Origin: an uncultured Enterobacterales bacterium
GTDB lineage: Bacteria; Myxococcota_A; UBA796; CAJQPC01
Length of the DNA stretch: 64,000 nucleotides
Assembly: GCA_964519895.1 (NCBI GenBank)
Contig: CAZFLE010000008.1
Coordinates: forward strand, 25,767-89,766
Direction: 5' to 3'
In this document: one piece after another, positions 1 to 50,429 of the stretch
Layout of the letters: the number at the start of each line of letters is the position of its first letter
Numbering within the stretch: the first letter of the stretch is position 1
Position numbers and translations under genes: made by a program
The notes under the pieces: model-generated
What the model was told of the DNA's origin: nothing
Seen by the model: only the letters and a program-made list of their open reading frames with translations
Database searches by the model: none

Positions 1-666
<666 letters not shown>

Positions 667-689
667 GGTCCCTCCGAGGAGCCAGCCGC

Positions 690-1295
690 CTATCCGTTCT
701 GACCTCTGGCGGCTTCGATGAATGCGCGGACCCGGTCGGGGTCCTGGCGCCCCGGCTCGTGTTCCACCCCAGACGCCACGTCGACCCCCCAAGGGGCCAC
801 CGCCGCGATGGCATCCGCCACGTTGTCCGGACGCAGTCCGCCGGCCAGGATCATCGAGCCCAGGCCGCGGCAGCGGTGGGCCAGGGCCTCGTCGACCCGC
901 TGGCCGGTGCCGCCAGCCTTGCCCAGCACATGGGCGTCCAGCAGGAAGCGATCGGGCGCCCAGGCGCGGATCTCTGCCTCCACGTCCCGGTGGGCTCGGA
1001 AGGCGCGAAAGGCCGGCACCCCCAGCCACGCCGTGTGGGCCGGGGTCACCCGCCCGTGGAGCTGGAGCGAGCTCGGCGAGATCGCGGCGACCAGGTCTAC
1101 GAGCTGGTCTGCCGTGCGATCCACGAGCACCAGCACCGACTCCACCGACACGGCCCCGGCGATCTCGGCCGCCAGGTCCACCGAGATGGATCGGGCCGAA
1201 GGCGCGTGCAGGTTCAGCCCCACCGCATCGGCCCCGCAGCGCTCGGCCCACAGCGCCTGTTCCACCGTGCGCACGCCGCAGATCTTGACCCACAT
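690..1295 (-). CDS. trpF: Phosphoribosylanthranilate isomerase
   Basis: 201-aa ORF starting [28 protein letters not shown], typical of the PRAI N-terminus. It sits between trpC and trpB with a 7-nt gap to the trpC stop. Confidence 0.85.
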
Positions 1296-1302
1296 GGTGC
1301 CC

Positions 1303-2061
1303 TCAGCCCCGCAGCGCGGCGAGGGCCGCGCCGGGGTCCGGTGCCGTCATCAGCGACGTGCCCACGAGCAGGGCGTCGGCCCCGGCTGCCCGCATCCGGT
1401 CGCGGTCCGCCACCGTGTGGATGCCGGACTCCGCGACCTTGACCACGCCCGCTGGGACCCGCGCCAGGAGCGTCTCGCTGGTCGCCAGATCGATCGCCAG
1501 GGAGTGCAGGTCCCGGTTGTTGACGCCCAGGATGCGCACGCCGGCGGCCAGGGCCCGGTCCAGCTCGGGCCCGTCGTGCACCTCCACCAGGGGCTCCATG
1601 CCCAGTCGACGGGCCTCGTCCATGCACGCCACGAGCTCCTCGTCGGAGAGCATCGCCACGATGAGCAGGCAGCTGTCGGCGGTGGCCACCCGGGCCTCCC
1701 GCACCATGCGCGGGCTGACCAGGAAGTCCTTGCGCACCACCGGGATGTCCACCGCGGCCCTGACGGCCCGCAGATCGTCCAGGGAGCCACCAAAGCGCGG
1801 CAGATCGGTCAGCACCGAGATGGCCGCGGCGCCGGCCGCCTCGTAGCTCTGGGCGATGGCCACCGGATCCGCGCCGGGTCGGATCTCACCCCGAGAGGGC
1901 GAGCGGCGCTTCACCTCGGCGATCCAGGCCAGGTCGGGTCCGTTCAGCGCCGCTAGCAGGTCCCGCGGCGGGGGCGCCTGAGCGGGATCGCCGACCCCCT
2001 CCAGGGCGAGCTGGGCGTCGTGGCGCAGCTTGTCGGCGCGGACGCGCTCCAAGAGGCTCAT
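1303..2061 (-). CDS. trpC: Indole-3-glycerol phosphate synthase
   Basis: 252-aa ORF containing IAEVKRRSPSRGEIR and VLTDLPRFGGSLDDL, which are IGPS motifs. It sits in trp operon context. Confidence 0.9.
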   Translation of the reverse strand: MSLLERVRADKLRHDAQLALEGVGDPAQAPPPRDLLAALNGPDLAWIAEVKRRSPSRGEIRPGADPVAIAQSYEAAGAAAISVLTDLPRFGGSLDDLRAVRAAVDIPVVRKDFLVSPRMVREARVATADSCLLIVAMLSDEELVACMDEARRLGMEPLVEVHDGPELDRALAAGVRILGVNNRDLHSLAIDLATSETLLARVPAGVVKVAESGIHTVADRDRMRAAGADALLVGTSLMTAPDPGAALAALRG

Positions 2062-2070
2062 GGGCCGCGG

Positions 2071-3336
2071 CTATCCCTGGCCGGTGGCCGGGTCGACCCC
2101 CAAGGCCCGGAACATCTTCTCCTCTTGCCAGCGCTGAAAGACCCGGAAGTGCCGGTCCGCGGCGTAGTGCCCGGTGGTCAGGTAGACAAAGGCCCGCAGG
2201 GGCGTGGTCCTGTCCGGGTGGTCCAGCAGCCGATGGGCTTCCCAGAAGAGCCCCTCGGTGCTGCGGTTGTTGCCGTACCAGTACCGGGCGAGCCGCAGGT
2301 AGGCGCGGTACTCCTGGCGAGCGCGGGTGGCGTAGCCGTCCAGGTCCCCCTGGAGCAGCGCGACCGCGGCCCCGAGTCCGGTGCGCACGGCGAAGTCGAC
2401 CCCGCCGCTCAGGATGGGGTCGACAAAGCACGCTGCATCCCCGATCAGGACCCAGCCGGGGCCGTGCAGCTGTCGGTGGGTAAAGGACCAGTCCCGGGCG
2501 TGGTGCAGGGTCCGACCGGCGACCTGGGCCCTGTGCGCACCGGCGAGGGGCAGCCCCGCCAGGGCCAGGGCTTCCTCGAAGTCCTGCTCGGACAGGCGGG
2601 TGCGGCCGCGGTGGACCACACCGACGCTGGTCCGCTCCGCGCTCACAGGGATGAACCAGACCCAGCCCTGGGGAACCGAGACCACCCACTGGACCAGCCG
2701 GCCCAGCACCCCGGGCACGCCGCCCGCACCGTCGAAGTAGGCATAGGTGGCGGTGCTGCGCAGGTCCTCGACGGTGCGGGTCAAGCGGAAGGCCCGTCCC
2801 AGCAGGCATCGCTGGCCGCTGGCATCGACGACGTGGTCGGCGCTCAACTCCTCGGGCCCATCAGGGCCTCGTGCACGCACACCGGTCACGCCGCTGGCGT
2901 CCCCCAGTGGCCCCACGACCTCCCAGCCGTGCCGCACGTCGACGCCCACGACTCGGGCAGCCCCCAGCACCAGGTCGTCGAACACCGCTCGGTCCACGTT
3001 GTAGGCGTGCTCGAAGCCCCCGTCCCGCAGGCCCGCTGCGTCGAGCGCGTCCACCTGGGACTCCAGGGCCGGATCGAAGAGCACGGACCACGGCTCCTGG
3101 TGCTCCCCCCACACGTAGACCGCCCCGTACTTTCGGGGGAAGCCCGCAGCGTCAAGGGCCGGCCCAAGCCCGAAGTGCCGATCGAGCAGGGTCAGGGTGG
3201 CCGGCTGAAGGGACTCCCCCACGTGATGCCGGGGAAACTCGGCGCGCTCGAGCAGGGTCACGTCGGCCCCTTCGGCCGCCAGCAGCCCGGCACAGGCCGC
3301 GCCCCCCGGGCCGCCGCCGACGACGATGACCCGCAC
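2071..3336 (-). CDS. FAD-dependent enzyme with the flavin-dependent halogenase motif set
   Basis: 421 aa. It has GGGPGG at aa 7-12 (GxGxxG), FPRKYGAVYVWG with Lys69, GWVWFIP at aa 224-230 (WxWxIP), and LFWEAHRLL near the C-terminus. It lies 9 nt upstream of the trpC start and 2 nt downstream of the cytochrome gene stop. Confidence 0.7.
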   Translation of the reverse strand: MRVIVVGGGPGGAACAGLLAAEGADVTLLERAEFPRHHVGESLQPATLTLLDRHFGLGPALDAAGFPRKYGAVYVWGEHQEPWSVLFDPALESQVDALDAAGLRDGGFEHAYNVDRAVFDDLVLGAARVVGVDVRHGWEVVGPLGDASGVTGVRARGPDGPEELSADHVVDASGQRCLLGRAFRLTRTVEDLRSTATYAYFDGAGGVPGVLGRLVQWVVSVPQGWVWFIPVSAERTSVGVVHRGRTRLSEQDFEEALALAGLPLAGAHRAQVAGRTLHHARDWSFTHRQLHGPGWVLIGDAACFVDPILSGGVDFAVRTGLGAAVALLQGDLDGYATRARQEYRAYLRLARYWYGNNRSTEGLFWEAHRLLDHPDRTTPLRAFVYLTTGHYAADRHFRVFQRWQEEKMFRALGVDPATGQG

Positions 3337-3338
3337 CC

Positions 3339-3689
3339 TCAGGTCCCGGGCTCAGCGCACGTCAGCCACCACACCAGCCGCTGGCGGTCGTCGGGCTCGA
3401 CCCCACCCTGGGGCGGCATGGTCGGCGGGTCCGTGCCCGCTCGGGCCAGGATGCGGTCCGCCTGGTCCCACGCCTGGTCCACCGTGTCGAAGGACACGTC
3501 TTCCGGGGCACCGAAGCGCTCCTCTGCTGCGCTGGCGTGACAGCCCTGGCAGGCCTCGATCAGGAAGCCCTGCCCCCAGCTATTCCACGTCACTGTCGCG
3601 GCGTCGGCGCAGGCCGTGTCTCCGAGCACGGTGTCCGTGGCCGAGTCGTCGACCGTGCCGCTGCAGGCGCTGAGCAGGAGCCACACCAT
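3339..3689 (-). CDS. Small lipoprotein, monoheme c-type cytochrome-like
   Basis: 116 aa. It has a lipobox LLLSAC, a single CxxCH (CQGCH) and a candidate distal Met in PPTMPPQGG. It is wedged between trpD and the halogenase-like gene. Confidence 0.6.
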   Translation of the reverse strand: MVWLLLSACSGTVDDSATDTVLGDTACADAATVTWNSWGQGFLIEACQGCHASAAEERFGAPEDVSFDTVDQAWDQADRILARAGTDPPTMPPQGGVEPDDRQRLVWWLTCAEPGT

Positions 3690-3709
3690 GGCGGGAGCCT
3701 ACCCGACCC

Positions 3710-4726
3710 TCAGGCCTGGGTGGCCGCGACCAGGGCCGCCAGGGTGTCCTGGACCGCTCCGCTGGCGAGCACGTCCAGCGCTTGCGCGACGCCCTCACGC
3801 AGGTCTTCGGCCCGCCCCGCCGCGTAGAGCGCTGCGCCGGCCCCCAGGGCCACAGCGTCCCGGCGAGGCCCGGTCTCACCGCCGAAGATCGCCCGCAGGA
3901 TCTCGGCGTTGTGCGTCGCGTCGCCGCCGCGCAGGGCTTCGAGCGGCGCGGGCGCCAGCCCGACCTGTTCTGGGGTGACCGTCCAGGAATGCAGGGTGCC
4001 GTCTCGCCACTCGGCCACCTGGGTCGGGCCGGCCAGGCTGAACTCGTCGATACCCCCGGCCCCATGCACCACCAGCGCATGGACCGCACCCAGCTCTCCC
4101 AGCACCCGACCCAGGGGCTCGACCCACTCGGCGCCGAACACCCCGACGACCTGTCGGCGAGCCCCGGCGGGGTTTGTGAGCGGGCCCAGCACGTTGAAGA
4201 CGGTGCGCACGCCGAGCTGGCGTCGGGGGCCCACGGCGAAGCGCGTCGCCGCATGGTGGGCCGGCGCGAACAGGAACGCGATGCCGACCTCCTCGAGCAC
4301 CCGCCCCAGGGTCTCTGGCGGCAGGGTCAAGTTCAGGCCCAGGGCCTCGAGCACATCGGCCGAGCCGCTCTTGCTGCTCACCGAACGGTTCCCGTGCTTG
4401 GCCACCGTCGCGCCGGCCGCCGCGGCGACGAGCGCTGCAGCGGTGGACAGATTGAATGTGCCCGAGCGGTCCCCGCCGGTCCCGCAGGTGTCCACCGGGT
4501 CCAGGCCGGGGGCCACTGGAATTCCGGTCGCGTGCCTTCGCATGATCCGCGCGGCCGCGGCGATCTCGTGCACCGCTTCGCCCTTGGTGCGCAGCGCGAT
4601 CAACAGCCCGGCGATCTGGGCTTCGGTCAGCTGCCCCTGGAGCATGGCGTCAAAGGCCGCCTCGACCTGGGCGGTGGACAGGTCCTGGCCGGCGAGCAGG
4701 AGCTCGAGCAGTGGGGCGACGTTCAC
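3710..4726 (-). CDS. trpD: Anthranilate phosphoribosyltransferase
   Basis: The ORF contains [26 protein letters not shown] and [21 protein letters not shown] place the start at the GTG at 4724-4726, which forms a GTGA overlap with the trpG stop. The track's longer 4858 start adds an Arg/Pro-rich non-homologous extension. Confidence 0.9.
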
Positions 4727-5295
4727 AGGGTCCCCTGGAGGAAGTGGGTGAGGAGCGCCATGCCGTGCTCGGTCAAGATCGACTCCGGGTGGAATTGGAC
4801 TCCGGCGACGGGCAACGAGACATGGCGAAGGCCCATGATCTCGTCGTCGTCGGTCCACGCGTTCACCGCGAGGCAGTCGGGCAGGCTGGCCCGGTCCAGC
4901 GCCAGGGAGTGGTAGCGCGTCGCGGTGAACGGGCTGGGCAGGCCGGAGAACACGCCGCTGCCGTCGTGGTGGATGGGCGATGTCTTGCCGTGCATGAGCC
5001 GCTTGGCCGCCACGACGCGGCCCCCGAAGTGCTGGCCGATGGACTGGTGCCCCAGACAGACGCCCAACAGCGGAATCTCGCCGGCGTAGCGTGCGATGGC
5101 GGCCAGGGAGATGCCCGCCCGATCCGGGTCACATGGGCCGGGGGAGATCAGCAGGCGATCGGGCGAGCGCGCCCCGATCGCCTCGACCGGGATCTGATCG
5201 TTGCGCACCACGTCGACCTGGGCCCCCAGGACCTGGAGGTACTGGACGATGTTCCAGGTGAAGCTGTCGTAGTTGTCGATGACCAGGACGTTCAT
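4723..5295 (-). CDS. trpG: Anthranilate synthase component II (glutamine amidotransferase)
   Basis: 190 aa, starting [20 protein letters not shown]. It contains [12 protein letters not shown] (catalytic Cys) and GVQFHPES. Confidence 0.92.
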
Positions 5296-5302
5296 GGTGT
5301 GA

Positions 5303-6826
5303 CTACAGCCCCTGCTCGGCGAGCTCGAGGGCCCGGAGCACGGCCCCCCCCTTGTTCAGGGTCTCCTGGTACTCGCTGGCGGGCACCGAGTCGGCCACGA
5401 TGCCGGCGCCCACCTGGAGGAACCAGCGCTCGCCCTGGCGCCAGGCGGTGCGGATCGCGATCGCCAGGTCCATCTGGCCGTCGCCCCGGACCCAGCCCAC
5501 CGCCCCACCGTAGGGCCCCCTTGGGACCGGCTCCAGCTCGTCGATGATCTCCATCGCCCGGACCTTGGGCGCCCCGGACAGGGTGCCTGCGGGAAACGTC
5601 GCCCGGACCGCGTCGAAGCCGTCCCGACCCGGGGCCAGCAGTGCACGCACGTCGCTCACGATGTGCATCACGTGGGAGTAGCGCTCGATCTTCATCAGCG
5701 CGTCCACGTGGACCGACCCCGGGGCCGCGACCCGGCCCAGGTCGTTGCGCGCCAGGTCCACCAGCATCACGTGCTCGGCGACCTCCTTGGGGTCCGCCAG
5801 CAGGTCTTCGGCCAGGGCCAGGTCCTCGGCCTCGTTGGCGCCGCGATGGCGCGTGCCGGCGATCGGGCTCACCCAGGCCTGGTCCTCGGCGACACGGACC
5901 ATCACCTCGGGGGATGCGCCGGTGACCAGCTGCTCCGGGTAGCGCAGGTGGAACATATAGGGCGACGGGTTCACGGCCCTGAGGGCCCGGTACAGGTCCA
6001 GAGGATCGCCGCTGAAGCCCAGCCGGAAGCGGTTGCTGAGCACGACCTGGATGCAGTCTCCGGCCCGGACGTAGGCCTTGATGCGCGCGACACCGGCCTC
6101 GAAGGCCGGCTGGTCGAACTCGGGCTCCAGGGTGACCTGGTCGCCCCTGCGGGTGGGGCGCTCGGGCAGCGGGCCCCGGAGCTTGCCGATGATGCGGGCG
6201 ATGCGCTGGACCGCGCCCGCGTGGGCCACTCGGGGGTCCGTGCCCGGCTGGACCGTGACGACCTGGACCACGGCGATGCGGTGGCGCAGGTTGTCGAACA
6301 CCAACAGCGATCGGGGCAGCGAGAACACCAGCGTCGGGGCTGCGTCGGGCTCGGCGGTGAACGGCGAGGGCAGTCTCTCCCACCACCGGACGGCGTCCCA
6401 GGCCAGCCAGCCGACCGCTGCGCCCACCACGCGTGGCACCCCCTCGACGGGCACCGACACGGTCCGGCCCAGCTCGTCCTGGAGGAAGGCCAGGGGGTCG
6501 TCGCGCTCCTCGGAGCGATGGACCCAGCCGTCTCTCAGGACCTCGCACAGGCGTCCACGGGCCCGCACCACGAACGCCGGGTCGAAGCCGATGACGGAGT
6601 AGCGGGCCCAGCGCTCGCCGCCTTCCACGGACTCCAGGAGGAAGGCGTGCGCGTCGGGCCGGTCCAGGGGAGGCTGGCCGTCGCAGACCTTCATGAAGGC
6701 CGACACCGGCGTGTCCAGGTCGGCGAGGACCTCTCGGAAGACCGGGATCGAGACCGCCTGCCCTTCGTGGGCCTGGGCCAGCGCGACGAAGTCCTCGGCC
6801 GTCGGTGTGATCAACGCTTGCTCCAA
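5303..6826 (-). CDS. trpE: Anthranilate synthase component I
   Basis: 507 aa with chorismate-binding family motifs ([26 protein letters not shown]). It has a TTG start per the track. It is the first gene of the minus-strand trp string. Confidence 0.9.
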
Positions 6827-6892
6827 GCCGAGGGGGTGACCCCGGCGTCCGGGTGGTTATCCTTCGGGGCACTGCAGACAAAGGAGCGCCGC

Positions 6893-7273
6893 GTGGGCAA
6901 GCCGTTCGTGTCCCTGACGCCGATCGCCATCGAGAACCTCAAGAAGCTCCTGGCCGACAACGACATGGCCAGTCACGGCCTGCGCTTCGGCGTCCAGGGC
7001 GGAGGCTGCTCAGGCTACTCCTACCTGATGGAATTCGAGGAGGCCGCCCAGGACGGCGACACCACCTTCCACATCGATGGCGTGCCGCTGTACCTGGCCC
7101 CGCTCAAGCGCGACTTCCTCCAGGGTGTGGTCATCGACTACGTCGACGAGCTCATGGAGACCGGCTTCAAGATCCACAACCCGAACGTCGAGCGAGCGTG
7201 TGGTTGTGGCGAGTCCTTCGACATCCCGGAAGGCGTCGCAGCGACCCAGGCCGACAGCGAAGCGCTCGCGTAG
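6893..7273 (+). CDS. IscA/HesB-family iron-sulfur cluster insertion protein
   Basis: The GTG start is preceded by AAGGAG. The sequence is VGKPFVSLTPIAIENLKKLL...GGGCSGYSY...CGCGESF, the HesB/IscA Cys signature. It is in frame with the tail of track ORF 5663..7273. Confidence 0.85.
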   Translation: MGKPFVSLTPIAIENLKKLLADNDMASHGLRFGVQGGGCSGYSYLMEFEEAAQDGDTTFHIDGVPLYLAPLKRDFLQGVVIDYVDELMETGFKIHNPNVERACGCGESFDIPEGVAATQADSEALA

Positions 7274-7283
7274 GACGGGGCCC

Positions 7284-7559
7284 TCAGGTCTCGCCGGGCT
7301 CCAGCCGGACCAAGACGTCCGAGATCACCTGTGCCTGGCAGCCCAGGCGCTGTCCCGGTTCGTCCAGGAAGGGCTCCTCGACGTCCTCCAGCGGCGTGAG
7401 CTCGCCCTCCAACAGCCGCACCCGGCACGTGTTGCAAGCCGCAAAGCCACCACAGGCGGCCTCCATCGGCAGATCGTGCGCCAGGCAGACCTCGTAGAGG
7501 GTCTCGTCGGTCTGGGCCGGGACCGTGACCCCCAGCCCCTCGAAGCGCACCTCGGGCAT
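7284..7559 (-). CDS. 2Fe-2S ferredoxin
   Basis: 91 aa with CGGFAACNTC and a later C in LGCQ, a plant/adrenodoxin-like 2Fe-2S ligand pattern. It is convergent with the IscA-like gene. Confidence 0.8.
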   Translation of the reverse strand: MPEVRFEGLGVTVPAQTDETLYEVCLAHDLPMEAACGGFAACNTCRVRLLEGELTPLEDVEEPFLDEPGQRLGCQAQVISDVLVRLEPGET

Positions 7560-7579
7560 GGGCCGCGCCTAACCGGCCT

Positions 7580-8128
7580 CTAGAAGGCCCCGGCGATCGC
7601 CTGGGCAGAGATGTCCAGGGTGATGGTCACCTCCTCACCTGGCAGGGTCACCAAGGTGCCCGTCGTGATGATGGCCAGGGTGCCCGCGTCCACGTACTTC
7701 TGCAGCGTCGTCCCGTCTGGGAAGGGGACCGTGTACTGGATCTGCTCGGGCGGCAGCTCGGACAGGAACACGATGCGCTCGTCGTCGTCGGAGAGCTGGT
7801 CGTCCGTGGAGACCCACAGCGAGATGTCGGTCAGGTACTCACCCAGGTTGCCCTGGACGGGGCTGGTGATGGTGACCTCCAGCAGCTCCAGGTCGCTGTA
7901 CTCCTGGACCGACTCCGGGAGCTGGCTCATCAGCTGCTCGGTGTCCTGGATCGGCGACGACTCCTCGAATTCCCAGCCATCGGGGTTCTCGGCGAGCGCC
8001 TCGACATCGAATTCCGGCACCACCACGGCGAAGGACTCGTTGATGGGGAAGGTGATGTCGTAGCAACCGGTCAGGGTGCCAGCCGCTGCAAGGGCGACAG
8101 CGGCGAGGGGGAGGGAGGTCTTGGTCAC
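7580..8128 (-). CDS. Acidic lipoprotein, unknown function
   Basis: I prefer the GTG start at 8128 because it has GGAGAC 5 nt upstream. It gives VTKTSLPLAAVALAAAGTLTGC, a lipobox signal peptide. The track start is 8200. Confidence 0.55.
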   Translation of the reverse strand: MTKTSLPLAAVALAAAGTLTGCYDITFPINESFAVVVPEFDVEALAENPDGWEFEESSPIQDTEQLMSQLPESVQEYSDLELLEVTITSPVQGNLGEYLTDISLWVSTDDQLSDDDERIVFLSELPPEQIQYTVPFPDGTTLQKYVDAGTLAIITTGTLVTLPGEEVTITLDISAQAIAGAF

Positions 8129-18965: not shown

Positions 18966-19127
18966 TAGTCGGGTGAGTCTGAAGTTCGCGGGAATTCGCT
19001 TGCCCTCGACGCCGCTGGCGGCGTTCCGGCTCCTGGACGTGACTCGGCCACGACTGCGTCGCCGCGCCTTGCCAGCGACGCCGATTGCGGCGCGACTTCC
19101 GAAGCGAACATCAGGCTCACCCCACTA
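18966..19127. mobile_element. MITE-like 162-bp element, copy 1 (about 22-bp terminal inverted repeats, TA flanks)
   Basis: It aligns without gaps to 50268..50429 with 6 substitutions. Ends: TA-gtcgggtgagtctgaagttcgc ... gcgaacatcaggctcaccccac-TA. It has no coding capacity of its own. Confidence 0.7.
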
Positions 19128-19712
19128 GAAAGTGCCCCGATAGGGGGTCGTGGCGACGGTGCGGAACGTCGGGGTGGTCGCCGGGGTGGTCAGGGACGGG
19201 CGCTCCAGGGTGCCGGCGGTGCTCCAGAGGGGCGTCGGCTGCAGCACCGGCGCCGCTCGCGGTGCCTGGTCGGCTGCGGCCCCGTCGGTCACACGAGAGC
19301 GCTCGAGACTGTGCAACAGGCGGTCCTTGGCGGCGACGGCCTCGGCGGCCTCCAGGTGGCTGACCCAGGCCCAGCAGATCGCCGTGGCCAGGACCGCGGC
19401 GTAGGCGACCATGTGCACAGCCCCCAGTCGGACCTCGGAGGGCCACCACCGCTGCCGGTGAAAGGCCAGCCCCTGGGCGTCGAGCTGGTCGTACCGCGTC
19501 AACACACCTTCGAGCATGTCGGCCATGAACGGCTCTTGCTCGACGTCCTGGGGTCCGGTGCTCGGTCCGGGCTGGGTGGCCTGGAGGAGGCTCGCGTGGG
19601 CCTGGCAGGTGGTGCACTCGGCCAGGTGGTCCTCGACCTTGTGGGACTCGACAGACGTCAGTTCCTGGTCGAGCCAGGCCACGATGCGGGACCGGGTGCG
19701 CCGACAGCCCAT
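19125..19712 (-). CDS. Anti-sigma factor, zf-HC2 type, single-pass membrane
   Basis: Start MGCRRTRSRIVAWLDQEL, with GAGGAG upstream. It has the H-x3-C-x2-C motif HLAECTTC and one TM helix (VHMVAYAAVLATAICWAWV). It lies downstream of the ECF sigma gene. Its stop TAG lies at the repeat-element junction. Confidence 0.7.
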   Translation of the reverse strand: MGCRRTRSRIVAWLDQELTSVESHKVEDHLAECTTCQAHASLLQATQPGPSTGPQDVEQEPFMADMLEGVLTRYDQLDAQGLAFHRQRWWPSEVRLGAVHMVAYAAVLATAICWAWVSHLEAAEAVAAKDRLLHSLERSRVTDGAAADQAPRAAPVLQPTPLWSTAGTLERPSLTTPATTPTFRTVATTPYRGTF

Positions 19713-19807
19713 GGACTCCTCGGAATACGGCAGGCCGAGGCCGATCCTATAGCGGGAATCGGTTGGGATCACTGGAAACCACACGCCTTGGCCATGCCAG
19801 GGGCTCC

Positions 19808-20413
19808 TCAGACGCCTTCAGCCACGAGCGGGTGCTCTGGGCCCAGCACGCCGGCCAGACGAGTGCGGGCTCGTGACAGACGCGACATCACGGTCCCCAG
19901 CTTGACCTGGAGCACGTCGGCGATCTCGTTGTAGGAAAGGTCGTTGTAGTACCGCAGGAGCAGGATCTCCCGGTGTGCGGGCGTCAGGTGCTCCAAGGCG
20001 GCCATCATCTCCCCTCGCACCTCGCCCGCCAGCACATGCTCCGTGGCGCTCCGGGGAGGGAGCTGGGGCGCTGCCTCCTCCTGGCGGGTGTTCAGCAGGC
20101 CGCCCCGGCGCTTCTTGTCGCGCACGATGTTGAAGCACAGGTTCGAGGTCACTCGGAACAGCCACGCCTTCATCTGGAAGTCCGGCGTGAAGAAGCGAGG
20201 CTCCCGCAGGGCCTTGATGAAGACCTCTTGCACGGCGTCGTAGGCCTCTTGGGGATCACGCACGATGCAGAGGGCATGGTAGTAGAGCTTTGAGCGGTAC
20301 TTTCGCACGACAAGCTCAACCGCCAGGCGACGGTTCTCCTGGCTCAGGCGCTTGAGATCCCCGTCTTCCCAGCGAGTGGGGTCGGGGTGTGGCATGACCT
20401 TGACGGTTCCCAT
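19808..20413 (-). CDS. ECF (group 4) sigma-70 family RNA polymerase sigma factor
   Basis: Region 2 is YDAVQEVFIKAL...AWLFRVTSNLCFNIVRDKKRR. Region 4 is EILLLRYYNDLSYNEIADVLQVKLGTVMSRLSRAR. Confidence 0.9.
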   Translation of the reverse strand: MGTVKVMPHPDPTRWEDGDLKRLSQENRRLAVELVVRKYRSKLYYHALCIVRDPQEAYDAVQEVFIKALREPRFFTPDFQMKAWLFRVTSNLCFNIVRDKKRRGGLLNTRQEEAAPQLPPRSATEHVLAGEVRGEMMAALEHLTPAHREILLLRYYNDLSYNEIADVLQVKLGTVMSRLSRARTRLAGVLGPEHPLVAEGV

Positions 20414-20984: not shown

Positions 20985-22637
20985 CTACTCGGTGAGCCCC
21001 GGAATGCGCACGCCGCGGTCGTGGGCGACGTGGATGGCCTGGTCGTAGCCTGCGTCAGCGTGTCGGATCACGCCCATCGCCGGGTCCGAGGTCAGCACCC
21101 GCTCGATTCTTCGTGCCGCCTCTGGGGTACCGTCGGCCACGATGACCTGGCCGGCGTGCAGGCTGTAGCCCATGCCCACCCCGCCACCGTGGTGGAACGA
21201 GACCCAGCTGGCGCCGTTGACCGCGTTGATCAGCGCATTGAGGATGGGCCAGTCCGCCACCGCGTCGGAGCCGTCGCGCATGCCTTCGGTCTCGCGGTTG
21301 GGCGACGCCACCGACCCGCAGTCCAGGTGGTCCCGGCCGATCACGATGGGGGCGGACACCTTGCCGGTGCGCACCAGCTCGTTGAACAGCGCACCGGCCT
21401 TGTCCCGCTCGCCGTAGCCCAGCCAGCAGATACGGGCGGGCAGCCCCTGGAAGTGGACCTGTGCTCGCGCTCGCTCGAGCCACGTGTGCAGGGCCCGGTC
21501 CTGGGGGAAGAGCGCCATCAGGGCTTCGTCGGTGGTGTAGATGTCCTGGGGATCGCCGGACAGTGCGACCCACCTGAAGGGGCCCTTGCCCTCGCAGAAC
21601 AGGGGCCGGATGTAGGCCGGCACGAAGCCGGGAAAGTCGAAGGCGTCGGCGCAACCGCCTTCGACGGCGCCGGCCCGCAGGTTGTTGCCGTAGTCGAAGA
21701 CGTGGCTGCCAGCGGCCTGGAGGTCGAGCATCGCGCGGACGTGGGCGGCCATCGTGGCGTGGGCACGGGCCACGTAGGCGTCTGGGTCCGCTTCGCGGAG
21801 AGCCTGGGCCTGGGCCAGGTCGAGGCCGCTGGGCACGTAGCCCTGGAGCGGGTCGTGGGCCGACGTCTGATCGGTCACCAGATCGGGCGCGATGCCCCGA
21901 CTGGCGAGCTCTGCAAAGCCGTCGGCGGCATTGCCCACGACGCCGACAGATCGCGCCAGGCCGCGAGCCTGGTAGTCAGCGACCCGCGCGAGTGCGGTGT
22001 CCAGATCGGGGGCGAGCTCGTCCAGGTACCCGGTCATGAGGCGCTTCTGGATGCGCTCCTCGTCGACGTCGAATCCTAGGAAGACCGCCCCGGCCATCGT
22101 CGCGGCGAGCGGCTGTGCACCGCCCATGCCTCCCAGGCCCGCGGACAGGATGAGGCGCCCGGTCAGATCGCCGCCGAAGTGCTGCTTGCCGGCCGCCACG
22201 AAGGTCTCGTAGGTGCCCTGGAGGATGCCCTGGGTGCCGATGTAGATCCACGACCCGGCGGTCATCTGGCCGTACATCATCAAGCCTGCTCGCTCGAGCT
22301 CCCTGAAGTGCTCCCACGTGGCCCACTTGCCGACCAGGTTCGAGTTCGCGATCAAGACCCGGGGGGCATCGGCGTGGGTCTTCATCACGCCCACCGGCTT
22401 GCCGGACTGGACCAGCAGGGTCTCGTCGTCCTCGAGGGAGGTGAGGCTGCGCAGGATGGCTTCGAGCGCTGGCCAGCTGCGGGCTGCGCGGCCGGTGCCG
22501 CCGTAGACCACCAGATCGTCCGGACGCTCGGCCACGGCCGGGTCCAGGTTGTTCAAGAGCATGCGGTAGGCGGCTTCTTGCACCCAGCCCTTGCAGGTCA
22601 GGCGGGTCCCTGTCGGGGCCTCCAGGCGGCGCGGCAT
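20985..22637 (-). CDS. hutU: Urocanate hydratase
   Basis: 550 aa. [39 protein letters not shown] and the remainder match the urocanase layout. Confidence 0.95.
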
Positions 22638-27684: not shown

Positions 27685-30468
27685 TCAGCGTCGCCGCCGC
27701 CGGCCACCGGCCACCAGGCCGACCAGCAGCATGAGCCAGGCCGCCGCCGGGTCGACCGGACTGGCGGCGCAGCCGCAGCCACCGGCGTTGAGGCCGGACT
27801 CACCGTCCGGGTCCACGCTGGGGTCGCCGTCGGTCGCGCCGTCGGGATCGGTGCCCGGGTCGGTGCCGGGGTCACCGGTGGGGTCGCCGTCGCCGATCTG
27901 GCTGCTCAGGGCATAGATGCAGACGTCGTCGATGTTCCATCCGCCGAATGCCAGTCCCTGGTCGGACTCCAGGTGCCAGGCCAGCTCGACCGTGCCGTCA
28001 CCGTCCGCGTCCTCGATGCTGTAGGTCGCGAGCGACCAGGCCTCGTCCAGGTGGTGCTCGTCGCCGACGTCGAAGTTCGTGGCGTGGTTCTCCCAGACCT
28101 CCTCGCCGTCGACCTCGACCCAGGCCTCGTCGTAGTAGCCGTCCTCGATGGTGAGCCAGCGGCGGAACTGGAGCAGGAGCGGTGCGCCCTCGCCGCCGCT
28201 GACGTCGATGGCGGGGCTGTACAGGCGGTTGTGCTTGTCGTGCTGGTATTCGCCGTTGTAGTTGCCCGAGCCCAGGTCGTTGCCCCACAGCTGGTCGCCG
28301 GAGAACGCGTCGCTGGGATCGCCGCCGTTGCCCGACGGCCGGCCGAGCTGCCAGTCGTCGGCGCCCAGCTCGTCCACACCGTTCACCAGCTCGTGGCGGA
28401 ATTCGCTGCCGAGCTCGTCTTCGAAGTCGGTGCAGTACAGCTCGACGAGCTCGCCGACGTAGAAGGTGTGCGGGTTGATGGCGCCACCGGCCGGGGCCAT
28501 CTGGACGTCGCCCTCGGCGTCCTCGACGGCCAGGTAGTACTGGACGATCGTGCCGTCGGGCTGGGGCGGGATGAGCCCCGACAGCTCCGAAGTGCTGTCG
28601 ACGGTCATCGTCGCCTGGTGCCAATTTTCACCGCCGTCGGTTGAGAAGTGCACCGTGCCGGCGGTGATCTCGAACTCGTTGCAGTCCGGTGCCAGGTTCA
28701 GCAGCTCGGCATCGACCCACACGTCCTGGTAGGGCAGGTGGTTGTCGACGGTGTTGTGGAGCACGGTGGTGAGGCTCTGGTTGCCACCCGGGCCGAGCCC
28801 GTGCATCTGGAAGGCCTCCAGGATCTGACACTGGTGGGGCGTGCCGTTGCCCAGGTTTCCGTCGTCGTCGTCGGCGACCAGGAACTCGTCGTAGGCGTCC
28901 GGGATCGTGGGGCCGCCCTTGATGCCGTCCGCCAGCAGCTGGCTGGTGACGCGCTGGGCGGCGTCCCGGTCCCCGAGCTCGTCGGTGAGCAGCTGCCACA
29001 GGTCCCACACCGCGCCGGCGAAGATCAGGCCGTCGTAGTGCACCTCGCCGACCCAGTCATCGGGGTAGATGCGGTTGGACTCCATCTCACGGATTCCGGA
29101 GCCGTTCGTCGAGAAGCCGGGGGCCAGGAGCGCATCGTCGGTCAGCAGAGCTGAGATGATGTCGCCGATGCCCTCGGAGATCGAGCCATCGAAGGAGCCG
29201 CTCTGCAGGCTGTAGTAGTGAAAGCCGTGGCCCCACTCGTGGTAGTTGACGTCGGCGATGCGCCCGGTGTTGTTGCAGCCGCTGCCGGCCGTGTAGAAGT
29301 TGACGTTGCCGTCATAGTAGGCGTTGCAGCTGGAGCTCAGGTTCACGTTGCTGCGCAGATCGCTGGTGCTCATCGAGACCTCTGGGGCCGTCGCAAGGCC
29401 CCAGTCCCGCACCTGGTGCAGGAAGATGTAGCTGTCGATCTGGGCCATCGACTCGTCGCCGCTGCGCTCCCAGACAAAGCTCTCCTCGGAGAACACCGCC
29501 TCGAGCTCGCTGCCCGCCTGGTTGTTCACCCGGAGCCAGTCGCCCCGCAGCTCGGTCATGAAGGTGCCGTCCCCGGACGGGTCCAGGTTGAACACGCCGG
29601 TGATGTCGGTGTAGGTCGTGTCGCTGCCGTTGGTCACCTGGGCCAGCGGCACATCGGACTCGGCCAGGTTGCCGTCGACCGTGCGCAGGTCGTGCACGGC
29701 GCTGACGTGGCCTTCCAGGAAGCGGACCTCGTTGTGCACGTTCACCAGCTCGGCGTTGTGTGCGTCGACGAAGTGGACCCAGATGCCCACAGGATCCGCC
29801 GTGCGGGTCCGGATCTCCCAGGTCAGGTCGTAGTGGAGGCCGCCGGACTGCTCGGTCGGGAGCAGCACCAGCCGCGCGCCCTCGAAGCTGTGGTCGGCCT
29901 CGGGCGCCGGCCCCTGGGCGATGGCCTGGCTCAGGGCCAGGTCCTCGCCGATCTCGGGAGATGTGCTGACCCAGTCAGCGCTGGGGTGGGTGTCGATGCC
30001 CAGCAGGATCAGGTTTCCGTGCTTGATCCGCGCGGTCACGCCGCTCCGGTACAGCGGCACACCGTCCACGACGCGATCGAAGTCCACGTACCAGGTGTTG
30101 GTGCGCGCGACGTAGCCGGCGCTCTTCAGGACGAGAGCGTCGGGATCGACGTCGATCAGGTCGGGCTGACGGGCGAAGAAGTCCCGCAGAGCGCGCTCGA
30201 CCTGGTGCTCATCCTCCAGGCTCCCCATCGGGATCCCCGGGCCCCAGGCCCGGTGTGGCGTGCCGGTCCACTCGTCGAACCGTGCCTGCCAGCCAGCACC
30301 CTCGGAGTCCTGGAACTGACGCCACCCTTCGCCGTCTTGAAGTGTGGCCTGGGTGCGCGGGTGGTAGATCGGCAGTCGGTATGGCTCGGTACCGATGTAG
30401 ATGTCATCAGCGGGAGCGAGAGCAAATGCCGGGGCGGGCAGCAGGCCCACGGCGATCAACAAGGACAT
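27685..30468 (-). CDS. Secreted zinc metalloprotease (thermolysin/fungalysin-like gluzincin) with MYXO-CTERM-like tail
   Basis: Start MSLLIAVGLLPAPAFA, with GGAGGG upstream. It has HEWGH (HExxH) followed by SEGIGDIIS (a Glu ligand-like motif). The C-terminus is GGCGCAASPVDPAAAWLMLLVGLVAGGRRRRR. Confidence 0.75.
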   Translation of the reverse strand: MSLLIAVGLLPAPAFALAPADDIYIGTEPYRLPIYHPRTQATLQDGEGWRQFQDSEGAGWQARFDEWTGTPHRAWGPGIPMGSLEDEHQVERALRDFFARQPDLIDVDPDALVLKSAGYVARTNTWYVDFDRVVDGVPLYRSGVTARIKHGNLILLGIDTHPSADWVSTSPEIGEDLALSQAIAQGPAPEADHSFEGARLVLLPTEQSGGLHYDLTWEIRTRTADPVGIWVHFVDAHNAELVNVHNEVRFLEGHVSAVHDLRTVDGNLAESDVPLAQVTNGSDTTYTDITGVFNLDPSGDGTFMTELRGDWLRVNNQAGSELEAVFSEESFVWERSGDESMAQIDSYIFLHQVRDWGLATAPEVSMSTSDLRSNVNLSSSCNAYYDGNVNFYTAGSGCNNTGRIADVNYHEWGHGFHYYSLQSGSFDGSISEGIGDIISALLTDDALLAPGFSTNGSGIREMESNRIYPDDWVGEVHYDGLIFAGAVWDLWQLLTDELGDRDAAQRVTSQLLADGIKGGPTIPDAYDEFLVADDDDGNLGNGTPHQCQILEAFQMHGLGPGGNQSLTTVLHNTVDNHLPYQDVWVDAELLNLAPDCNEFEITAGTVHFSTDGGENWHQATMTVDSTSELSGLIPPQPDGTIVQYYLAVEDAEGDVQMAPAGGAINPHTFYVGELVELYCTDFEDELGSEFRHELVNGVDELGADDWQLGRPSGNGGDPSDAFSGDQLWGNDLGSGNYNGEYQHDKHNRLYSPAIDVSGGEGAPLLLQFRRWLTIEDGYYDEAWVEVDGEEVWENHATNFDVGDEHHLDEAWSLATYSIEDADGDGTVELAWHLESDQGLAFGGWNIDDVCIYALSSQIGDGDPTGDPGTDPGTDPDGATDGDPSVDPDGESGLNAGGCGCAASPVDPAAAWLMLLVGLVAGGRRRRR

Positions 30469-30551
30469 TGGAACCCTCCGTCGGGAGAAGAGGTTCGTTC
30501 GGCAGAGATGATTTCGCAAGCCGTCACACTTCAATCAACACGAATCTTGCA

Positions 30552-32171
30552 GTGCGCCGACAGGGTCTAGACAAGCCCCGGTGGACTCTGGTGTGCTGGG
30601 CACTGTGCCTCGCGCTGCTCCAGGCCTGCTCCAGCGATGCACCGGAGCCCAAGCCTGACTCCGGTCTCCCGGAGCTGCCTGAGCTCGTCGCCGGGCCTGT
30701 GGACCGTGTCGGCGAGGTGCGCGCTCCCCGAGAGATCCAGCTCTTCCTGGTGGGTGAGGTCCGCGGGGAGATCGAGCCCTGCGGCTGCCCGACCCTGCCT
30801 TATGGGGGTTTTGTGCGGCGCCAGGCCCTGCTGGCCCAGGTCTCTGGCTTGGGGATCCCGACATTTCACCTGGACGCGGGCGAGAGTCTGGTCAAGGGAC
30901 TGATCCTGACCGACGCCGGCGCCATGAAGGACCGGGCCGAGCTGTTGGCGGAATTGATGGAGGACGTCGCGGTCGATGCGTGGGTGCCGGGCCCCTCTGA
31001 TCTGGCGCCGGCCGGGCTGAAGGGGCTCAAGGCCCTGTTCCCGGCGGGGACCACGCCCCTCACGAGCGCCACCTGGATCGACCAGGAGGGCGAGCCGCAC
31101 TTTCCCCCGAGCATCGTGCTCTCGCGGGACGGCCTGACGCTTGGCGTGGTGGGCCTCTCCCGCCGTCCCACGTCGCCGGAGCAGCGGGCGATCGTGGGCT
31201 GGCGAGACCCGGTCGACGCCGCCAGAGAGGCGGTGGGGGCGCTCCCCAAAGATCTGGACCTGGTCATTGCGCTCTCCAACCTCCCCAACGAGGACAACGA
31301 TCGGGTCGCGGCCGAGGTGGCCGGGCTCGCCGCGGTGCTCTCCACCGCCGGTGCCCAGCACGACCAGCCCCGGGCGGCCAGTGGTGCGCCGGTCGTCGAG
31401 GTACCGGGCCGGGGGCGCTACGTGACCCTGCTGCGCACCTGGCTGGGGTCGACGGCGGGCCAGCCGCTGGCGTTGGAGACGACCCGGTCCAAGGACCTGA
31501 AGCGGTACGATCAGAGCCGCGTCGCGCTGCGCCGGATGGTGCAGAGCGGCCAGGCCGATCCCACTGCCCAGAGCGCGCTCGAGGGGCGGGTCCAGACCGC
31601 CCTGGCTGCGCTCACGTCGGCCGCCCAGGGACACAACCTGGCGGTGCACGACCTGCGGCCACTGGGCGCTGGCCTGGACAGCGAGGTACCGGTGTCGGCC
31701 CGGATCGCCCGCTACAAGCGCTCGGTGCTGCGCGAGGCACTGGCGGTCGAGACCGCCGAGGTCGAAGAACGCGGTCCGCACTACGCCACAGCATCCGTCT
31801 GTGTCGGCTGTCACCGGCCCCAATTCGCGCGGTGGACCTTCACGTCGCACGCCAAGGCTCACGACACCCTCAAGTCCCGGAACGAGGCGGAGAACCCGGA
31901 GTGCCTGGGGTGCCACACCCTGGGCTTCGGTGAGGAGGGCGGCTTCGGAGAGCTGACGCCGTTCCGCCTCAGCCAGTACGGCGGCGTCCAGTGTGAGGCC
32001 TGCCACGGCATGTTGGCAGGGCACCCCGAGGAGGATGACGTCCGGCCCACTCCTGTCGGGCCCCAGACCTGCTTGCGCTGCCACGACCCGGCCAACTCAC
32101 CGCAGTTCGACTACGACGTCTACCTGCGCAGCGTGCACTGTCCGATCGGCGATGAGATCACGCCCCCTTGA
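30552..32171 (+). CDS. Lipoprotein: degenerate 5'-nucleotidase/metallophosphatase-like region fused to a tetraheme c-type cytochrome
   Basis: GTG start (aa 100 of the track ORF). Lipobox LALLQAC. Four CxxCH motifs (CVGCH, CLGCH, CEACH, CLRCH) lie in the last ~130 aa. The N-terminal region contains GEIEPCGCP. Confidence 0.7.
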   Translation: MRRQGLDKPRWTLVCWALCLALLQACSSDAPEPKPDSGLPELPELVAGPVDRVGEVRAPREIQLFLVGEVRGEIEPCGCPTLPYGGFVRRQALLAQVSGLGIPTFHLDAGESLVKGLILTDAGAMKDRAELLAELMEDVAVDAWVPGPSDLAPAGLKGLKALFPAGTTPLTSATWIDQEGEPHFPPSIVLSRDGLTLGVVGLSRRPTSPEQRAIVGWRDPVDAAREAVGALPKDLDLVIALSNLPNEDNDRVAAEVAGLAAVLSTAGAQHDQPRAASGAPVVEVPGRGRYVTLLRTWLGSTAGQPLALETTRSKDLKRYDQSRVALRRMVQSGQADPTAQSALEGRVQTALAALTSAAQGHNLAVHDLRPLGAGLDSEVPVSARIARYKRSVLREALAVETAEVEERGPHYATASVCVGCHRPQFARWTFTSHAKAHDTLKSRNEAENPECLGCHTLGFGEEGGFGELTPFRLSQYGGVQCEACHGMLAGHPEEDDVRPTPVGPQTCLRCHDPANSPQFDYDVYLRSVHCPIGDEITPP

Positions 32172-32180
32172 ACCGGCGCA

Positions 32181-33257
<1,077 letters not shown>

Positions 33258-50267: not shown

Positions 50268-50429
50268 TAGTGGGGTGAGTCTGAAGTTCGCTGGAATTCA
50301 CTTGCCCTCGACGCCGCTGGCGGCGTTCCGGCTCCTGGACGTGACTCGGCCACGACTGCGTCGCCGCGCCTTGCCAGCGACGCCGATTGCGGCGCGACTT
50401 CCGACGCGAACTTCAGCCTCACCCCACTA
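50268..50429. mobile_element. MITE-like 162-bp element, copy 2
   Basis: TA-gtggggtgagtctgaagttcgc ... gcgaacttcagcctcaccccac-TA. The terminal inverted repeats match at 21 of 22 positions. It differs from copy 1 by 6 substitutions. Confidence 0.7.

Follow-up and report, generated by a model that had tools for sequence, protein, structure and literature searches.

The locus described here raises the question of why a gene with the signatures of a flavin-dependent halogenase (FDH) should lie within an operon of tryptophan (Trp) biosynthesis, and whether its product is functionally connected with that pathway. It is located within a 64,000-nucleotide (nt) stretch of a metagenomic contig of an uncultured bacterium (accession no. 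CAZFLE010000008.1, positions 25,767 to 89,766), which is referred to below as the window. The gene, designated hal, occupies positions 2071..3336 on the minus strand of the window, begins with a GTG start codon and encodes a protein of 421 amino acids (aa); it was identified from a list of open reading frames (ORFs) and by its match to Pfam family PF04820. On balance, we think it probable that hal encodes a true two-component halogenase, that a single capture brought it into the trp operon, probably along with a cytochrome c gene (cytc), and that it is now a co-transcribed, selected accessory which can be lost with the operon unharmed.

Family assignment of the hal product

The hal gene is not a chance ORF. 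The GC content of its three codon positions (0.78/0.50/0.89) matches that of the flanking genes and is typical of real genes in this window (72% GC). It also has hundreds of homologues, a Pfam E-value of 6.2e-32 and a ratio of nonsynonymous to synonymous substitution rates (dN/dS) of 0.11-0.27.

An alignment of 19 family sequences revealed that the FDH hallmarks which the original prediction had reported for this 421-aa, minus-strand ORF are all present as stated and fall within invariant columns. These are (i) the GxGxxG motif (G7-G-G9-P-G-G12, with G7, G9 and G12 invariant), (ii) K69, located in FPRKYGAVYVWG, (iii) the WxWxIP motif (W225-P230 of G224-W-V-W-F-I-P230, with W225, W227, I229 and P230 invariant) and (iv) LFWEAH at 363-368 (F364, W365, A367 and H368 invariant), within a conserved C-terminal block (346-415). 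The same alignment contains a tunnel motif, FxxPxxSxG (F304-V-D-P307-I-L-S310-G-G312), in which F304, D306, P307, S310, G311 and G312 are invariant. Residue E41 (within GESL) is also invariant; it is non-discriminating, since it is part of a flavin site common to the hydroxylase QhpG.

In ungapped pairwise alignments, K69 is paired with a lysine of CndH (FPIKRGG), FasV (QRKYGG), CmlS (VKKPSA) and ChlB4 (FPKKYGA), which bears out its predicted placement at the catalytic Lys position; we take K76 of CndH and K71 of CmlS to be the catalytic lysines. The WxWxIP motif of hal is paired with GWLWYIP (FasV), GWFWYIP (CndH) and GWVWMIP (CmlS), and F304-G312 with FIDPLLSTG, FVDPVFSSG and FTDPLFSQG of solved halogenases. 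According to a review in which WxWxIP is defined, this motif shields the flavin from the substrate, and the GxGxxG, WxWxIP, Lys and FxxPxxSxG motifs are diagnostic for active FDHs (PMC8407142). The catalytic Lys at the tunnel end has its equivalents in K79 of PrnA and K74 of RadH. The latter is essential, which supports a catalytic role of Lys in this position (PMC10377541).

From these conserved residues we infer that the hal product has halogenating activity, with the following putative chemical route. FADH2 supplied by a cellular flavin reductase would bind at the GxGxxG/Rossmann site and react with O2 to form a flavin-C4a-hydroperoxide, on which the attack of chloride or bromide would yield HOCl or HOBr. 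The WxWxIP wall would keep the organic substrate off the flavin, while the hypohalous acid would move through a tunnel lined by F304xxP307xxS310xG312 to K69. This residue may then pass the electrophilic halogen to an electron-rich aromatic ring.

The hidden Markov model comparison proposed with the original prediction (PF04820 against models of geranylgeranyl reductases and UbiH-type hydroxylases) placed hal well above the gathering cutoff of PF04820 (Trp_halogenase; 111.5 bits versus 21, E 6.2e-32) and below that of GG-red-SF (TIGR02032; 104.4 bits, 8.8e-30, versus 158.8). The best NCBIfam model was the CmlS halogenase (NF033113; 167.8 bits, below its cutoff of 900), matched over only the first 321 of its 570 positions, followed by QhpG (NF049967; 116.9 bits, 1e-33, below its cutoff of 240). 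LodB/GoxB-type models gave weaker matches, down to 1e-16 (77 bits versus a cutoff of 400), and Pfam FAD_binding_3 also matched (5e-20).

A sequence search of the PDB returned FasV (8zop, 4.5e-57), CndH (3e1t, 4.8e-53) and CmlS (3i3l, 4.7e-41), and then ChlB4, PltA, Mpy16, Bmp2 and RadH, down to 1e-24. The identity of hal to FasV, CndH and CmlS is ~33% (32-34% for FasV and CndH). Other E-values were 6e-8 for a digeranylgeranylglycerophospholipid reductase of the geranylgeranyl reductase type (3oz2), 4.7e-4 for QhpG (7ctq) and 1e-4 to 9e-4 for PrnA and RebH, the last two matching over residues 2-56, or weakly 164-317, only. An AlphaFold2 (AF2) model of hal, built with 19 homologues, had a predicted local distance difference test score (pLDDT) of 80.8, with low confidence in the last 65 residues. 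Its 20 best Foldseek matches were halogenases or the FDH-like protein 3nix, and the best FDHs had template modelling (TM) scores of 0.66-0.76.

These comparisons bear on a possible mis-assignment, i.e. that the hal product is an FAD-dependent reductase or monooxygenase without halogenating activity, for instance of the geranylgeranyl reductase or UbiH hydroxylase type, with no more than a resemblance to halogenases. The matches to GG-red-SF and FAD_binding_3 speak for such an enzyme. However, the former score is below its cutoff, 3oz2 is matched at 6e-8 versus about 1e-57 for halogenases, and none but halogenases and 3nix appear among the 20 best structural matches. Moreover, K69, FxxPxxSxG and WxWxIP are invariant, and WxWxIP replaces the reductase motif. 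We consider this explanation highly improbable and effectively excluded.

By its profile, PDB and Foldseek matches, the predicted hal product is a member of the FDH family, of the short phenol/pyrrole (CndH/CmlS/PltA-like) type, and is neither a classical Trp 5/6/7-halogenase nor a geranylgeranyl reductase. The phenol/pyrrole class, with a length ~100 aa below that of the Trp halogenases, had been predicted correctly. Of the features of a classical Trp halogenase (~530 aa, a C-terminal Trp-binding module and close kinship), hal has none. The name of PF04820 is taken from the Trp halogenases; since hal lies outside that subgroup, the name is no evidence for a Trp substrate.

The trp operon and the history of the insert

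Besides hal, the operon comprises the following features within the window:

1..666, minus strand: trpB, N-terminal 222 codons, running off the window (HTGAHKINN in its translation)
690..1295, minus strand: trpF, phosphoribosylanthranilate isomerase (Pfam PRAI, 1.1e-31)
1303..2061, minus strand: trpC, indole-3-glycerol-phosphate synthase (Pfam IGPS, 7.5e-77)
2062..2070, minus strand: hal-trpC spacer of 9 nt
3339..3689, minus strand: cytc, 116-aa CxxCH protein (Pfam Cytochrome_CBB3, sub-threshold)
3710..4726, minus strand: trpD, anthranilate phosphoribosyltransferase, 338 aa (TIGR01245, 389 bits versus a cutoff of 199)
4723..5295, minus strand: trpG, anthranilate synthase component II (Pfam and NCBIfam)
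5303..6826, minus strand: trpE, anthranilate synthase component I, at the head of the operon (Pfam and NCBIfam)

The gene order first reported for this locus (trpE, trpG, trpD, cytc, hal, trpC, trpF, trpB) was verified with Pfam and NCBIfam, and the tight junctions reported with it proved exact: the trpG stop and trpD start codons overlap (GTGA), and 2 nt separate cytc from hal and 9 nt hal from trpC. The trpD-cytc spacer is 20 nt long. On the full 96-kb metagenome contig trpB is followed by trpA (PALP and then Trp_syntA), which gives the operon trpE-G-D-cytc-hal-C-F-B-A. All seven trp genes are contiguous, lie on one strand and are orthologous to the genes of relatives, as in a canonical trpEGDCFBA operon. 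Because the spacers measure 2-20 nt, hal is predicted to be transcribed together with the trp genes. No terminator-like or sigma-70-like sites were found in 1..7600 with E. coli-type consensus sequences, which may miss the signals of this host. The region upstream of trpE is divergent from an Fe-S assembly gene, and no obvious Trp-rich leader peptide is encoded in its ~80 nt next to trpE. A search of the whole window with Rfam at gathering thresholds revealed no leader, riboswitch or rRNA. The direct and inverted repeats at the borders of the insert are at chance level only, and there is therefore no sign of insertion by a mobile element.

The trp operon of the window is flanked by housekeeping genes (PGM, Fe-S assembly and ferredoxin genes; nusB, ribH and ribBA). 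Where the 64-kb window was annotated, no genes for polyketide synthases (PKS), non-ribosomal peptide synthetases (NRPS), carrier proteins, flavin reductases, peptide precursors or radical S-adenosylmethionine (radical-SAM) enzymes were detected. The carrier, NRPS and PKS genes that would form the context of a carrier-dependent (variant B) enzyme were not found in a 21-kb view of the contig either.

The distribution of the insert was analyzed by a search of 5.8 billion proteins, and further relatives were obtained from a genome scan, a metagenome scan with a TrpC alignment, and look-ups of the closest TrpD proteins; the clade survey was made without the contigs bearing TrpD P0122, P0123 and P0128. 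In the protein search, hal homologues of at least 79% identity formed four clusters only, the next identity being at most 63%. All four are embedded in trp genes, namely the window, L001 (complete trpEGD-cytc-hal-trpCFBA), L007 (cytc and hal as in the window) and L008 (trpD-hal-trpC, with cytc absent). A more diverged version, trpG-trpD-cytc-hal, is present in L095/L096 (identities to the window of 74% for hal, 64% for cytc and 78% for TrpD). The embedding of a halogenase gene in a trp operon, as first noted for the window, thus recurs in L001, L007 and L095/L096 and, without cytc, in L008. The trpG gene of L001 (L001:5320-5894) consists of two pieces in different frames (called product of 175 aa), the frameshift being an assembly error or the mark of a pseudogene.

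The insert is confined to one small uncultured clade, with TrpD proteins at least 78% identical. Four lineages of this clade carry cytc and hal, a fifth has hal alone, a sixth lacks both and retains a scar, and a seventh is clean. In the scarred loci, L089 (whose contig is shared with L091) and L090, the insert is absent and a 79-nt gap separates trpD and trpC; in L092, also without the insert, the gap measures 26 nt. These insert-free relatives are no more distant than those with the insert. Within the gap of L089/L090, GCCCTGGGGGTCGAC...CCAGGCCGGCGGATAG precedes a hal-trpC spacer of the usual kind. The gap can be aligned with the final codons of hal (...ALGVD...stop), with ~35-50 nt of the hal 3′ end kept, and its equivalent in the window is the hal 3′ end at ~2071-2120 plus the spacer 2062..2070. 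In a blastn-short comparison, the gap was 88.6% identical to L008 over 35 nt, a match that none of 200 shuffles equalled, and the best matches of the scar are located at the hal 3′ end in all four insert-bearing loci compared. Since ALGVD is part of the conserved C-terminus of the FDH family, the remnant derives from a halogenase gene, and L089/L090 therefore lost the insert rather than never had one. The TrpD of L008 is 6 aa longer, and its 3′ end loosely resembles that of cytc, which is consistent with, and may suggest, a deletion of cytc.

The sister clade (L093/L094; TrpD ~71% identical) has an uninterrupted trpEGDCFBA operon with overlapping trpD and trpC; the uninterrupted state is therefore ancestral. 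A six-member clade is separated from L093 with 100% support. The flanks of the L093 operon are as in the window, with PGM upstream and DUF2752-nusB-ribH-ribBA downstream. This synteny identifies the window operon as the orthologous housekeeping operon, and not as the dedicated set of trp paralogues that was one of two possibilities in the original prediction. Such a set, serving a halogenated-indole cluster of the hapalindole/welwitindolinone kind, would have precedents in cyanobacterial clusters that join trp genes and a halogenase (PMC4236562). Against it are the housekeeping flanks, syntenic with those of a plain trpEGDCFBA operon, the lack of other biosynthetic genes in the annotated parts of the 64 kb, and the hal-free siblings, which keep the operon intact. 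This explanation has very little probability and is effectively excluded.

Where the genes are kept, dN/dS values are 0.11-0.27 for hal, 0.19-0.27 for cytc, 0.13-0.23 for trpD and 0.14-0.35 for trpC. Purifying selection thus acts on hal no less strongly than on trpD and trpC, and the inserted genes are therefore functional in these lineages. The hal gene is nevertheless dispensable: cytc was deleted in one lineage and both genes in another, with a remnant of the hal 3′ end. Nor does the description of hal as "hard-wired" into primary trp genes apply to an insert limited to a small clade, whose siblings lost it, one with a scar.

The wider halogenase family and the role of hal

A genome scan identified 572 relatives of hal, and 88 loci were fetched and searched. 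Relatives of 50-63% identity originate from metagenome-assembled genomes (MAGs) named Myxococcota, Polyangiaceae or Deltaproteobacteria, or with placeholder names; the affiliation with Myxococcota is based on the names of the nearest homologues only. Four loci (L017, L023, L030, L036) have Myxococcota-like genes and are titled "uncultured Enterobacteriaceae/Klebsiella/Enterobacterales", which look like placeholder or wrong labels.

A tblastn search of the 88 loci with the Trp proteins of the window detected trp genes beside an FDH gene only in the clade of at least 79% identity, and in none of the 82 other loci. In a neighbour-joining tree, the trp-embedded FDHs form one branch (99/100), nested in the Myxococcota-type family. 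ORF clustering revealed radical-SAM genes at most 4 genes from the FDH gene in 16 of 29 other family loci, some of them on basal branches. Representative neighbours match PapB/HxsB/HxsC-type radical-SAM/SPASM maturases and an ApyD-like B12-radical-SAM protein, below the curated cutoffs. One neighbour is an α-ketoglutarate-dependent (aKG) HExxH peptide beta-hydroxylase (94.9 bits versus a cutoff of 40), one locus contains HxsD, and another FDH subgroup is placed among housekeeping genes. The usual setting of the family is thus tailoring of the type found in ribosomally synthesized and post-translationally modified peptide (RiPP) systems; the trp location is derived and goes back to a single event. 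In the forebear of a small clade of uncultured high-GC bacteria, a single insertion placed one copy of a Myxococcota-type FDH subfamily, normally found in radical-SAM/RiPP-like settings, between the trpD and trpC genes of the housekeeping trpEGDCFBA operon.

Several radical-SAM/SPASM maturase-like genes usually surround the FDH gene in the subfamily, as in the loci L003, L009, L011, L015, L019-L024, L026, L027, L030, L032, L033 and L037 (e.g. L037:1685-13987), and further neighbours in the L003-L037 set include a CarH-like MerR-B12 regulator and a cyanophycinase-like peptidase. Judged by gene content, the loci with FDH and radical-SAM/HExxH genes look like an undescribed halogenating RiPP-type system of Myxococcota MAGs. 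In L006:1-12321, a gene for a 60%-identical FDH is located beside three WelO5-like iron/2-oxoglutarate-dependent (Fe/2OG) enzyme genes, two FGE-sulfatase-like genes and a prenyltransferase gene, a possible multi-halogenase cluster. Four family members (P0059, P0065, P0085, P0099) are ~670 aa long and carry a ~230-aa extension without a recorded Pfam domain.

The cytochrome is conserved in its own right. In an alignment of 21 sequences, C9 (lipobox-type), C27, C47, C50, H51, M91-P92-P93 and C111 are invariant; the protein has the haem motif C47QGCH51, the motif T90MPP93 and the N-terminus MVWLLLSAC. A class I c-type cytochrome would have a CxxCH haem-binding site, a distal Met ligand and a profile match; the Pfam Cytochrome_CBB3 score of the cytc product is 23.9 bits, under the cutoff of 27, and the AF2 model of the protein (pLDDT 60) is too weak for a fold search. 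The product of cytc is probably a small mono-haem c-type cytochrome and a lipoprotein. If exported, it would not directly serve a cytoplasmic halogenase. Its putative signal (3663-3689, minus strand) is unusually short: only eight residues, MVWLLLSA, precede the lipobox Cys, and a basic n-region is lacking. Similarly very short N-termini are found in several family members. Orthologues are located in the equivalent position in L001, L007, L095 and L096, and only 34 relatives were detected, whose sources bear Myxococcota or Deltaproteobacteria names. When all 88 loci were searched with a profile, cytc homologues appeared in the trp clade and L033 only, and a role of cytc as general partner of the FDH family was rejected on this basis. 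The L033 homologue (L033:9403-9819, minus strand; 37% identity) has a full-length lipoprotein signal and lies convergently ~60 nt downstream of a gene for a 50%-identical FDH; this is the sole cytc-FDH adjacency outside the trp clade.

The location of hal suggests a coupling to Trp synthesis, in which its product would act on free anthranilate, indole or L-Trp. Induction of the trp operon would then also yield a chlorinated or brominated anthranilate, indole or tryptophan that could serve as signal, antimetabolite or building block. These compounds are electron-rich aromatics of the kind that FDHs halogenate. In favour of such coupling, hal has been kept between trpD and trpC, with tight junctions, in at least five diverged lineages, purifying selection on it persists where cytc was deleted, and the annotated parts of the window lack a carrier protein or biosynthetic cluster, which speaks for a free, common substrate. 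However, apart from the flavin module hal has no relationship to the Trp halogenases and lacks their C-terminal substrate module, and sibling genomes have deleted it with the trp operon intact. The only family-conserved column that has changed in the trp branch is R149 (to G), and there is thus no sequence sign of a substrate switch. The halogenation of anthranilate, indole or Trp, the other possibility raised originally, is a case of guilt by association: relatives of 50-63% identity are never found beside trp genes, and over half of them lie beside radical-SAM/SPASM genes, mostly in RiPP-like clusters. We regard action on a free Trp-pathway compound as doubtful. A broader version, in which hal was recruited to free anthranilate, indole or Trp or to Trp residues, and trp expression is tied to a halogenated indole or anthranilate product, appears unlikely.

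The RiPP-like settings of the family point in another direction, namely to a peptide- or protein-modifying flavoenzyme, either a MibH-type halogenase or a QhpG-type hydroxylase. Such an enzyme would halogenate or hydroxylate an aromatic residue, in a target encoded elsewhere or in the adjacent cytochrome c before its export. The commonest family neighbours are radical-SAM/SPASM maturases, HxsD and the aKG-HExxH peptide beta-hydroxylase, and QhpG is the second-best NCBIfam model (1e-33) and provides a precedent, with a CmlS-like fold whose tunnel serves as a peptide-Trp site (PMC7876137). For the cytochrome as target, the alignment of 21 sequences contains conserved Trp residues, and a cytc homologue lies beside the 50%-identical FDH in L033. 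Against a modifying enzyme of this type, the QhpG score of 117 bits is far from the cutoff of 240, and the QhpG structure is matched at 5e-4 versus 1e-57 for halogenases. The annotated parts of the window contain neither a radical-SAM gene nor one for a precursor, hal persists without cytc in L008, and cytc lies beside an FDH gene in only one of ~30 other family loci, where it is convergent. We consider this explanation quite improbable.

The reading that we prefer is that of a true halogenase captured as an accessory. Most likely, the small lipoprotein cytochrome c gene came along with hal, and hal is an accessory passenger that borrows the expression of the trp operon. A Trp-pathway metabolite would be no more likely a substrate than a peptide or some other aromatic whose synthesis is encoded elsewhere. 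Several points weigh against this reading. The presence of hal in the trp operon of at least five diverged lineages, even after the loss of cytc, could reflect a tie to Trp synthesis. The annotated parts of the window contain no reductase, carrier, precursor or radical-SAM gene, so that the idea of a peptide substrate lacks local support. Because QhpG has a CmlS-like fold and yet is a peptidyl-Trp dihydroxylase, an identity of ~33% to known halogenases leaves the reaction unfixed. Finally, the internal bootstraps of the clade are below 50%, and the number of losses and the original state of L092 are uncertain.

If the substrate does belong to the Trp pathway, hal would encode a compact, 421-aa CndH-like halogenase for free anthranilate, indole or Trp, of interest for biocatalysis. 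It would represent a rare example of a primary operon with built-in chemistry of the secondary type, and the first halogenase integrated in a primary amino-acid operon. It would also offer a substrate clue for a whole uncharacterized Myxococcota FDH subfamily. Even as a passenger, hal provides a natural experiment, since close genomes show cytc plus hal, hal only, or neither with a scar, and comparison of these three states can reveal covariates of hal (a substrate gene, a reductase or habitat). The locus is also a lead to an uncharacterized Myxococcota FDH subfamily with radical-SAM/HExxH maturation genes, i.e. to candidate RiPP halogenases.

Three further features of the window lie apart from the trp operon. 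At 50427-57521 (minus strand), a 2364-aa protein is encoded, with ~12 MopE-type putative metal-binding motifs and ~12 FG-GAP repeats. At 19125-20413 and 20985-22637 (both minus strand), a urocanase gene comes after genes for an extracytoplasmic function (ECF) sigma factor and an adjacent zf-HC2 anti-sigma factor, an ordinary arrangement that has no connection with hal. The region 27685-33257 (minus strand) contains three consecutive large ORFs (949, 505 and 358 aa) with good coding statistics and no Pfam match at E <= 1e-4.

Comparison with known systems

The best sequence and structure matches of hal are FasV and the myxobacterial CndH (TM 0.74-0.76), which are of similar size (~410-510 aa) and have in common with it GxGxxG, the Lys in F/Q-x-K, WxWxIP, FxDPxxSxG and a C-terminal 'FW.A' stretch. 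They differ in context: the genes of FasV and CndH belong to biosynthetic clusters of the polyketide or hybrid type, and the enzymes chlorinate phenolics of these pathways, whereas hal is located inside a trp operon. FasV chlorinates a free naphthacenone (PMC11420778), and CndH is thought to use a carrier-tethered tyrosine analogue (PMC8407142). The fold and motifs of hal are also those of CmlS, PltA, Mpy16, Bmp2, ChlB4 and RadH (E 1e-41 to 1e-24). We know of none of these from a primary-metabolic operon. RadH is a variant A (free-substrate) enzyme that is structurally nearest to variant B (tethered-substrate) enzymes (PMC10377541), and variant A or B therefore cannot be read from similarity, although that of hal to CndH and PltA is high.

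With PrnA, RebH, PyrH and Thal, hal has in common the superfamily and the presumed chemistry; the similarity is weak and limited to the N-terminal flavin motif, and hal is ~100 aa shorter, without their C-terminal Trp-binding module. The peptidyl-Trp hydroxylases QhpG, LodB and GoxB have a CmlS-like fold and act together with radical-SAM/SPASM enzymes, a partnership that the gene neighbourhoods suggest for the wider hal family too. However, hal scores far below the cutoffs of their models, and true halogenases are far more similar to it. In the peptidyl-Trp dihydroxylase QhpG, which has a CmlS-like fold, the 'HOCl tunnel' serves as the site for the peptide Trp (PMC7876137).

Full-text searches of the searchable literature returned no natural FDH inside a trp operon, only engineering papers and hapalindole-type clusters; the original prediction likewise named no described example. 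In the hapalindole, ambiguine and welwitindolinone clusters, trp genes are physically linked to a halogenase gene, as in the window (PMC4236562). These are secondary-metabolite clusters, with extra trp paralogues and a Fe/2OG halogenase. In the window the polarity is reversed: an FDH gene and cytc lie inside a housekeeping operon, with no other biosynthetic genes in the annotated parts. We conclude that hal is a new, uncharacterized member of a known family in an unusual context, which is lineage-restricted and facultative.

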